64,000 nucleotides of DNA. It comes from Escherichia coli. GTDB lineage: Bacteria; Pseudomonadota; Gammaproteobacteria; Enterobacterales; Enterobacteriaceae. Position 1 is the stretch's first letter. Each line of letters begins with the position of its first letter. Below are positions 35,113 to 36,782 of the stretch, piece after piece. The notes under the pieces were generated by a model, which did not search any database, was not told the DNA's origin, and worked only from the letters and a program-made list of their open reading frames with translations. The stretch lies in NCBI RefSeq assembly GCF_003334785.1, contig NZ_QOWV01000010.1. One strand, given 5' to 3'. The position numbers and the translations under genes were made by a program.

Positions 35113-35607
35113 TTATGAACAACTGTCCATGATTTCGTTTAAGAATGAAGAGAAATCACTAAACGAACTGAATATATTTTCTGTGCCAATATTATCTCTA
35201 ATTTCAAAAAAGTTACTTTTAATGTCATAAGTAAATATTGAAATGCTATAATCCCCGATCACTAACCGTTCTTGTAGATCAGGGTTTATGAAATCATCAT
35301 TATTTCTATAAAATTCATTTACGGCAAAAAGGTTTTTAACTGAAGGTTCTGGAATCGAGAGGCTAAATAATCGTAATCCATTAACTTCGAATCCATCCAT
35401 TGCTCTTAAAAAAGTAAGATAATCAGGTTGATTCTTAAAAAGAATACTAACTTCATTACATAACTTCTCCAGGCAATTAGTTGAATTAGAATTAAATTCT
35501 ATTTGGATTATACTTTCAATAAATGATTCCTTGAGCGGTGCTTCAAATGGATAGTCTAAATCATTCATCATTTTTATTAATTTATTTATTTGGGTTTTAG
35601 TCATCAT
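35113..35607 (-). CDS. yrhA: Candidate immunity protein for the upstream Hcp-HNH toxin (yrhA-like)
   Basis: 164-aa ORF in AT-rich DNA; start codon overlaps the stop of the upstream toxin-like gene (ATGA); acidic composition; immunity role is inference from gene context. Confidence 0.7.
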   Translation of the reverse strand: MMTKTQINKLIKMMNDLDYPFEAPLKESFIESIIQIEFNSNSTNCLEKLCNEVSILFKNQPDYLTFLRAMDGFEVNGLRLFSLSIPEPSVKNLFAVNEFYRNNDDFINPDLQERLVIGDYSISIFTYDIKSNFFEIRDNIGTENIFSSFSDFSSFLNEIMDSCS

Positions 35608-36782
35608 TTTGTGTGGTCCATAATATTTTTCATGGGAGGATAAATTGAGCCAGATGGAATGGCCCAGGGAGTGATTTTGCTTTCACCTACTAATATTCCC
35701 TTAGCTATTCGTGATTGCATGTTAGTAAAAACTTTATGATATGGTTCGTTTTCGATTAATACTAAATTTTCGAAATCATTAGTACCACCATCATCTAGAG
35801 ATAGTTTATGGTGAACATTATAATTTAGAGGAACATTGCCCTTTCTCATTCTTAAAAGGTCTTCGGCGTTGAATCTTCCAGATGCTTCGGAGGTTTTTGC
35901 AAGTTTGATAAGAAAATTTTTTCTTACAGTTTTATTAAACTCCTTTCGTAAGTTAGCTAAGTCTTTTGAAGGTCTCTTAATGTATATTATTTCTATTATG
36001 TCTATACCATCAAGAAGTTTTTGTTGACCTCTAAGTTTGCCTAAGTAACTATTTATTTCTGTATATGTATCAACATTAGAACGCTTTGTTAAAAGAATAG
36101 ATGCTGTTGCTATCGCTATGCCCGCTGTTTTTTCATTTAGTATTTGATCATAGCCTTTTATTGCATCTCCACCCAGTTTTTCCGCAGTATCTCTGAATCC
36201 TTCAATGTTCCCATTGTATACGCCACCAGCAGCAAGTAGCCTGCCAATAGCTTTGCTGTTTAACGTTTTGAAACGATTATTTGTTTGGTTTTTTGAATTT
36301 GGTAAAAACAAACGGTTATAATTTTCAGGGAGTGCCAAATAGCTGAACTCGGTATTTGCGATAAGATGTTGACAGAGGATAAATTCATAACTAATAGTTA
36401 TTGTTTCTGTATCCAGTTGGTTTTCAATGATCTGGTGATGAATAGCCGATAAAAAAGCGCCTCTTAGTTGTATATAATAATACTTTTCCAATCTACCAAA
36501 TCTATTTATTCGATAGAAGTCAAATCCCATAAATAATTGTTCATTATTGTTAATGGAATTAATAAATAATGGAGTGCTTTTATCAATTAATTTACAAAAT
36601 GTTATACCATGGAACTGTGAACCAAGCCCCGTATTATTAATATTATTTAAGAGTGAGAATGTAAATATTTCATCCTCATGCCCGCTCTGCCAACGATTAC
36701 CTGTAGACTCAGAAGTCCCACAACCTGCGGAGATGCTTCCTTGTTGTTCTCCCGTTACTGTCAGGTAAACAATATTACTCAT
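35604..36782 (-). CDS. yhhZ: Hcp-like domain fused to C-terminal HNH-type nuclease (candidate orphan T6SS effector, yhhZ-like)
   Basis: 392 aa; N-terminal half resembles Hcp/TssD by my reading (MSNIVYLTVTGEQQG...); C-terminus carries an HNH motif (NVHHKLSLDDGGTNDFENLVLIENEPYH); AT-rich codon usage unlike neighbours. Confidence 0.8.
   Translation of the reverse strand: MSNIVYLTVTGEQQGSISAGCGTSESTGNRWQSGHEDEIFTFSLLNNINNTGLGSQFHGITFCKLIDKSTPLFINSINNNEQLFMGFDFYRINRFGRLEKYYYIQLRGAFLSAIHHQIIENQLDTETITISYEFILCQHLIANTEFSYLALPENYNRLFLPNSKNQTNNRFKTLNSKAIGRLLAAGGVYNGNIEGFRDTAEKLGGDAIKGYDQILNEKTAGIAIATASILLTKRSNVDTYTEINSYLGKLRGQQKLLDGIDIIEIIYIKRPSKDLANLRKEFNKTVRKNFLIKLAKTSEASGRFNAEDLLRMRKGNVPLNYNVHHKLSLDDGGTNDFENLVLIENEPYHKVFTNMQSRIAKGILVGESKITPWAIPSGSIYPPMKNIMDHTK

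Follow-up and report, generated by a model that had tools for sequence, protein, structure and literature searches.

The closest described relative of the locus considered here is Hcp-ET1/ETI1, known from the Shiga-toxin-producing Escherichia coli STEC004, from O104:H4 C227-11 and from 55989 (Ma et al., Virulence 2017). As summarised in two reviews and a preprint (PMC6730261, PMC6099711, bioRxiv 10.1101/2024.03.05.583533), Hcp-ET1 is a DNase effector that is delivered by type VI secretion system (T6SS) 2, not T6SS1, and is neutralised by ETI1; the preprint describes the pair of 55989 and C227-11 as an orphan Hcp-HNH gene with a downstream immunity gene. Here we analyse a 64-kb stretch of an E. 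coli contig (the window; all positions are in the numbering of the whole stretch) in which the genes named yhhZ and yrhA in K-12 lie within an AT-rich island between yhhY and ggt. With a probability of roughly 0.9, this locus encodes a specialised T6SS tube protein together with its antidote, that is, an Hcp-HNH DNase and a SUKH immunity protein forming one allele of a polymorphic toxin.

Other described systems share parts of this arrangement. The DNases of colicins E7 and E9 and of pyocins S2 and AP41 have receptor-binding and translocation domains where this toxin has an Hcp/T6SS carrier, are matched by a four-helix Im immunity protein where this one is matched by a SUKH fold, and have a fourth metal-ligand histidine (E7 H573) where this family has an invariant threonine. 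The HNH toxin Rhs2-CT of Serratia marcescens, with RhsI2 (PDB 9t38, 8cm0), is carried by an Rhs cage instead of Hcp and has EF-Tu as a partner in that structure. To SUKH proteins such as Bacillus subtilis YobK and Listeria Lin2918, YrhA is linked by fold and by intermediate homologs, being too divergent for the Pfam SUKH models. Like this locus, the orphan immunity arrays of Rhs and contact-dependent inhibition loci combine an unvarying N-terminal carrier with a variable, immunity-matched toxin tip and have older immunity genes behind them; unlike those arrays, this locus uses Hcp as its carrier and has a short array, made up of one intact orphan and one decayed relic, in which no orphan toxin-tip fragments were found.

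Identity of the pair with Hcp-ET1/ETI1

The toxin of the window is identical at 391 of 392 residues (99.7%), and YrhA at 162 of 164 (98.8%), to the products of the E. coli 55989 genes at the same locus, where the gene order is yhhY-tssD-yrhA-yrhD-yrhB-ggt. The segment encoding the HNH domain was found in 3790 of 5426 complete E. coli genomes, essentially as a single copy and at 95% identity or above, bar one record at 90-95%; because it is single-copy, there is no second candidate for the gene called Hcp-ET1. Compared through the 55989 copy, the published pair and the pair of the window occupy the same site with the same Hcp and HNH layout, and no structural difference separates them. Judged by these alignments, yhhZ/yrhA is Hcp-ET1/ETI1, a pair already known since 2017 and not a new one. 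The original prediction for this DNA, which was made from the sequence without database searches, had held that the chromosomal copy has no experimentally assigned function; this is true for the K-12 names only, its 99.7%-identical ortholog having been characterised. K-12-centred papers of 2024-2025 still call yhhZ/yrhA uncharacterised. The genes yhhZ-yrhAB have also been reported in the O104:H4 outbreak strain, and a genomic-island paper (PMC3309015) assigned them to methionine-to-cysteine conversion in sulfur metabolism, which appears to be a name collision with the unrelated B. subtilis genes yrhA and yrhB.

The two minus-strand open reading frames (ORFs), of 392 and 164 amino acids, had been predicted exactly, down to the overlap that joins them: the toxin ends with ...ACA AAA TGA, the other frame reads ATG ATG ACT, and the toxin TGA and the next ATG share the ATGA at 35604-35607. 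This overlap of toxin stop and yrhA start is not conserved, as a 19-nt gap separates the corresponding genes in Citrobacter koseri.

The Hcp carrier, the toxin tip and the immunity protein

Residues 1-147 of the toxin matched TIGR03344, the NCBIfam Hcp1 model, at E 3.8e-34, with 118 bits against a cut-off of 58.9. The toxin ORF also matched Pfam T6SS_HCP (PF05638) at E 2.5e-11 and showed similarity to solved Hcp proteins, namely Hcp3 (3he1, E 4.9e-12), 6a2v (1.7e-10) and Vibrio cholerae Hcp (5mxn, 7.5e-10). By these profile matches residues 1-147 are a true Hcp1/TssD domain, as had been predicted, although the prediction's 'N-terminal half' overstated its extent, which is 38% of the protein. 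Identity to Citrobacter alleles runs at 71-75% through the N-terminus and linker, to residue 229-251, and similarity ends there; the linker is conserved in all related alleles, and the recombination breakpoint to the variable tip comes after it. Residues 172-382 are common, at 68% identity, to carriers of the DUF8093 type, in which PF26362 stands in place of Hcp; because these proteins share the linker from residue 172 to 233 (36084-36269) as well as the HNH tip, we take the linker to travel with the toxin tip between carriers.

When the toxin module alone was used as the query of an exhaustive search, 583 cluster representatives were recovered, 350 of them at E<1e-10, and in all of them the match was the extreme C-terminus, in proteins of 136-1542 amino acids. 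The N-termini of these carriers included LXG and WXG100 domains (type VII secretion), Tox-PAAR-like domains (type VI), RHS repeats and Pre-toxin TG (PT-TG), as identified by running Pfam on each alignment member; NCBIfam recognised almost none. An alignment of 30 sequences, taken from diverse toxin tips, had 14 invariant columns (R279, F282, G315, V323, H324, H325, D330, G333, N335, N339, L342, H349, T353 and Q356 in our numbering of the toxin), and the window protein keeps all 14. Its HNH residues read NVHHKLSLDDGGTNDFENLVLIENEPYHKVFT, the same motif being also given as NVHHKLSLDDGGTNDFENLVLIENEPYH; the residues of the predicted motif are thus present, with the spacing off by one at two places (HH-x2-S rather than x3, and DGG-x-N rather than x2).

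The original prediction had proposed profile or structure searches for both ends of the protein, and beside the Hcp1 match above cut-off these gave an HNH fold for the tip, as judged by profile and model. The 30-sequence profile of the HNH core reached Cas8f-HNH (E 5e-5) and the colicin E7 DNase (E 1.4e-3); with the single sequence of the tip, the PDB returned marginal HNH matches only (E 0.037), and Pfam Col-Pyo_DNase (PF21431) was not matched by the toxin (E 1.9). Residues 234-392 gave a confident structure model with an HNH fold, the model having the beta-beta-alpha-metal arrangement. The catalytic histidine (general base), the structural asparagine and the metal-ligand histidine are present at H324/H325, N339 and H349, and by their spacing would correspond to H544/H545, N560 and H569 of colicin E7. 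Going by these residues, the toxin is predicted to work like the colicin and pyocin DNases and yet sits in a separate HNH clade; a classification of His-Me finger proteins likewise gives YhhZ an HNH group of its own as a predicted nuclease.

YrhA was matched by the NCBIfam 'YrhA family' model (E 1.7e-35). Pfam returned no family for it even at E<=10, SUKH models included, and a PDB search with a profile from the YrhA alignment returned chance matches only (antibodies, AraC). A fold search found the alpha+beta fold of SUKH/SMI1-KNR4. In every context examined (n=5: a C. koseri Hcp-ET, a DUF8093 carrier, an LXG toxin, a PAAR-like toxin adjoining DUF2169 and an 814-aa protein) the toxin module was directly followed by an ORF of 149-164 amino acids. 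All of these downstream ORFs scored with the YrhA-family profile (38.6 to 15.4 bits, against -0.0 bits for a neighbouring control ORF), and two had Pfam matches to SMI1_KNR4, SUKH_5 or SUKH_6. On the grounds of its fold, the conserved position after the toxin module and these profile matches, we consider YrhA an immunity protein of the SUKH superfamily. In Citrobacter alleles where the toxin tip is a different one the gene behind it differs too, tip and downstream gene swapping together at the same site. The predicted toxin/immunity pairing is borne out by the SUKH fold and by the YrhA-like genes that follow the toxin module in four unrelated carrier contexts.

An island of variable tips and leftover immunity genes

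The island stands out by its GC content, 0.28-0.39 over about 34400-37000 as against 0.50-0.58 in ggt and yhhY, a contrast that had been predicted. It was present at 80% or more of its length in 3758 of the 5426 complete E. coli genomes. The yhhY-ggt site has at least four states in this species: the full island; an empty site, with a 61-bp spacer in strain S6, where homology to the window stops at 34341 and restarts at 37020; an unrelated gene for a 303-aa DUF4225 protein in O157:H7; and yrhB alone, as kept by strain N1229. When the empty site was compared with the edges of the island by BLAST, direct repeats flanking the island did not appear, in a search that was not exhaustive for repeats.

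At the same site C. koseri carries an HNH allele and a homolog of YrhA (at 73% and 68% identity). The C. freundii tip is of another, unclassified kind, and after it come an 85-aa gene, an Imm35 gene and a 78-aa gene; in C. portucalensis the tip is a Gln_amidase (Tox-PL1) and Imm35 comes directly after it. Tips of other alleles matched PF15644, PF11429 and PF21814. The locus thus shows the marks of a polymorphic toxin: a constant N-terminus, a sharp breakpoint, variable tips and matched downstream genes. The DUF4225 gene of O157:H7 had no similarity to the 294-aa gene that lies upstream of the Citrobacter Hcp-ETs.

The genes beyond yrhA also fit this pattern. YrhB matched Pfam Imm35 (PF15567) over its full length (E 4.6e-23) and is 71-72% identical to the Imm35 proteins of Citrobacter. 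Imm35 is reported to be specific to Tox-PL1 (Zhang et al. 2012, PMC3482391), and the window holds no cognate Tox-PL1/Gln_amidase tip for YrhB. Because Imm35 follows the Gln_amidase allele in C. portucalensis and has no cognate here, we interpret yrhB as an orphan immunity gene left from a displaced Tox-PL1 cassette. A relic at 34702-34860, truncated and with an in-frame stop, matched the 85-aa gene of C. freundii in tblastn (51% identity over 53 aa, E 5e-14); that gene is presumed to be the immunity gene of its own Hcp-ET allele. Between the relic and yrhA lies yrhD, for which we found no match in Pfam or NCBIfam or among the genes of the Citrobacter loci, and whose reading frame is interrupted by a stop codon in strain FDAARGOS_536. 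We looked in yrhD and the yrhA-yrhB spacer for remains of a displaced toxin tip, of either the Gln_amidase or the C. freundii type, and found only the relic of the 85-aa gene. The order YrhA, (yrhD), 85-aa relic, Imm35 is consistent with 'toxin tip + immunity' cassettes having been replaced one after another, the older immunity genes staying behind on the downstream side. The horizontal acquisition read from base composition by the original prediction is therefore too simple: with allelic Hcp-ET cassettes at the same site in Citrobacter, an old polymorphic-toxin locus, recombining and varying by presence or absence in E. coli, describes the island better than a single recent insertion does.

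Constraint within the species was gauged from the ratio of nonsynonymous to synonymous substitution (dN/dS), which was 0.40 for the toxin tip and 0.27 for YrhA, values that rest on few differences (11 in YrhA). The comparison of E. coli with C. koseri was unusable for most segments, synonymous sites being saturated. A 96%-divergent E. coli allele retains intact copies of the toxin gene and yrhA, whereas its yrhB carries a frameshift and its yrhD is interrupted by a stop codon.

Features of the island are collected in Table 1. Promoters yhhZp5 and yhhZp7, and the lack of a terminator through yrhA, are on record (PMC12428005); our own scan for sigma-70 promoter and terminator consensus sequences gave 14 hits against 12.1 expected from shuffles, no excess in such AT-rich DNA.

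Table 1. Features of the yhhY-ggt island, in window positions
Feature	Positions	Strand	Basis or remark
AT-rich 2.7-kb island	34342..37018	.	ggt stop to yhhY stop; low GC, S6 breakpoints
GC-rich terminator-like hairpin between convergent ggt and yrhB	34349..34372	.	10-bp stem, then T-run
yrhB, 94-aa Imm35-family orphan immunity gene	34379..34663	-	Pfam Imm35
Decayed relic of 85-aa gene	34702..34860	-	tblastn against C. freundii gene
yrhD, 51-54-aa ORF	34863..35027	-	Without Pfam/NCBIfam match
yrhA (= ETI1), 164-aa cognate immunity protein, SUKH/SMI1-KNR4 fold (predicted)	35113..35607	-	ORF call; start overlaps toxin stop
hcp-et1 (yhhZ; RefSeq 'tssD'), 392-aa specialised Hcp with C-terminal HNH toxin	35604..36782	-	ORF call; identity to 55989 and K-12
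Portable C-terminal toxin domain, residues 234-392 (HNH / His-Me finger nuclease, predicted)	35607..36083	-	
HNH catalytic core, residues 315-356: H324, H325, D330, N335, N339, H349, T353, Q356	35715..35840	-	Invariant columns
Constant linker, residues 148-233, with hydrophobic stretch TAGIAIATASILL	36084..36341	-	Citrobacter allele comparison
Hcp/TssD tube-protein domain, residues 1-147	36342..36782	-	TIGR03344, Pfam and PDB matches
AT-rich operon upstream region	36783..37018	-	236-bp gap, yhhY stop to toxin start

The whole window is colinear with positions 261485..325484 of E. coli JNQH497 at 99.95% identity or more. Annotation transferred from that genome at 99.95% places the 5' end (first 230 nt) of rhsB, itself a polymorphic-toxin element, at the left edge of the window (1-230, minus strand). 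Elsewhere in the window an intergenic repeat of about 117 bp occurs in three copies of about 84% identity, one of them inverted, at 20922-21038, 26747-26863 and 54958-55064, in the livJ/panM, livF/ugpB and yzgL/glpD intervals; these are probably ERIC/IRU-type elements.

Delivery, alternatives and meaning

If the locus encodes a tube protein with its antidote, the Hcp domain would be built into the inner tube of a T6SS and fired into a neighbouring bacterium, as membership of the family suggests and as T6SS2 delivery of the ortholog is reported to show; on the preprint's proposal, it may do so in rings that also contain canonical Hcp. The conserved linker would tether the portable HNH nuclease, and target DNA would then be degraded, a step for which we have the predicted fold and the residues and for which DNase activity has been reported in the ortholog. 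YrhA/ETI1 would protect the producer and its kin, in keeping with the fold and pairing found here and the neutralisation reported for the ortholog; it would be made from the same transcript, the overlapping stop and start coupling translation of both genes. Over longer times, new 'toxin tip + immunity' cassettes would have replaced older ones at a yhhY-ggt site fixed in Escherichia and Citrobacter. In a genome without a T6SS elsewhere the toxin would be undeliverable, and only the immunity genes would then be useful.

Several observations weigh against this interpretation. The experimental claims on Hcp-ET1 were taken from reviews and one preprint. The annotation transferred from JNQH497 shows no tss or vgrG gene across the 64-kb window; the toxin had been predicted to be an orphan for this reason, and the orphan status of the yhhZ locus relative to T6SS genes is supported. 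K-12 is without a T6SS (review PMC6730261), and in K-12 (MG1655) the toxin is identical to that of the window and IS1 truncates YrhA at residue 130 (window equivalent about 35113-35220). This strain thus tolerates an intact toxin with a truncated YrhA, either because the toxin stays silent or has little toxicity in the cytoplasm of the producer or because the YrhA stub still protects. For the whole toxin the within-species dN/dS was 0.56 (28 differences), a modest constraint. The Pfam HNH model matches the single sequence weakly (E 0.013), and at the place of the fourth metal-ligand histidine of the colicin DNases (E7 H573 / E9 H131) the toxin has Thr353.

The last two points, together with the Col-Pyo_DNase result, are what one would cite for a C-terminus that is a decayed and inactive nuclease, which Blondel et al. 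state it to be. We find this scarcely credible: the entire toxin family has Thr353 without exception, which makes it a clade trait rather than a sign of decay, every invariant residue is kept, the confident model has an HNH fold, and DNase-dependent antibacterial activity has been reported for the 99.7%-identical ortholog. The absence of T6SS genes and the state of K-12 bear instead on what the locus is kept for. The source strain might have no T6SS, the toxin being a silent passenger and the locus a defensive remnant retained for YrhA, against Hcp-ET1 attackers, and for YrhB, against Tox-PL1 attackers. N1229, which retains only yrhB, and the orphan immunity genes known from polymorphic toxin loci (PMC3482391) agree with this. 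The toxin ORF is nonetheless intact with all catalytic residues, IS1 in K-12 disrupts the immunity gene and not the toxin, and in the divergent lineage it is yrhB that is frameshifted while the toxin is intact, so we hold such a purely defensive role to be possible but rather doubtful.

A module acting inside the producer like a toxin-antitoxin pair, in addiction for example or in a stress or abortive-infection response, would explain the tight coupling of the two genes, the lack of linked secretion genes, the persistence of the locus in T6SS-less K-12, and a spontaneous yhhZ-yrhA deletion described by a preprint in an MG1655 topoisomerase I (TopoI) mutant. It would not explain why the Hcp tube domain is complete and scores above the curated cut-off, why the same tip sits on secretion-specific carriers (LXG, PAAR-like, RHS), why the partner belongs with SUKH proteins, which are immunity proteins of secreted toxins (PMC3482391), or how K-12 survives with a truncated 'antitoxin'; we regard it as very unlikely. 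The deletion in the TopoI mutant might reflect selection against a de-repressed toxin or plain IS1-mediated deletion. On the former view, which is speculative and which we consider improbable, yhhZ in lineages without a T6SS, K-12 among them, would be a latent DNase directed at its own cell, tolerated only because the AT-rich operon is transcriptionally silenced; disturbing DNA topology or the silencing would switch the toxin on and favour loss of the gene. Were this true, yhhZ would be a hidden liability for genome integrity in laboratory strains, not an inert orphan, and the TopoI-mutant deletion could be explained.

For an effector-immunity pair already known as Hcp-ET1/ETI1, the value of these results lies mainly in annotation. 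The fold of YrhA and the orphan immunity genes are typical of polymorphic-toxin loci and will not surprise a specialist, but once the K-12 names are tied to Hcp-ET1/ETI1, what is already known of that pair can be applied to a locus that about 70% of complete E. coli genomes carry. The SUKH fold of YrhA, the orphan Imm35 protein YrhB and the decayed third gene lead in turn to predictions of which strains resist which Hcp-borne toxins.

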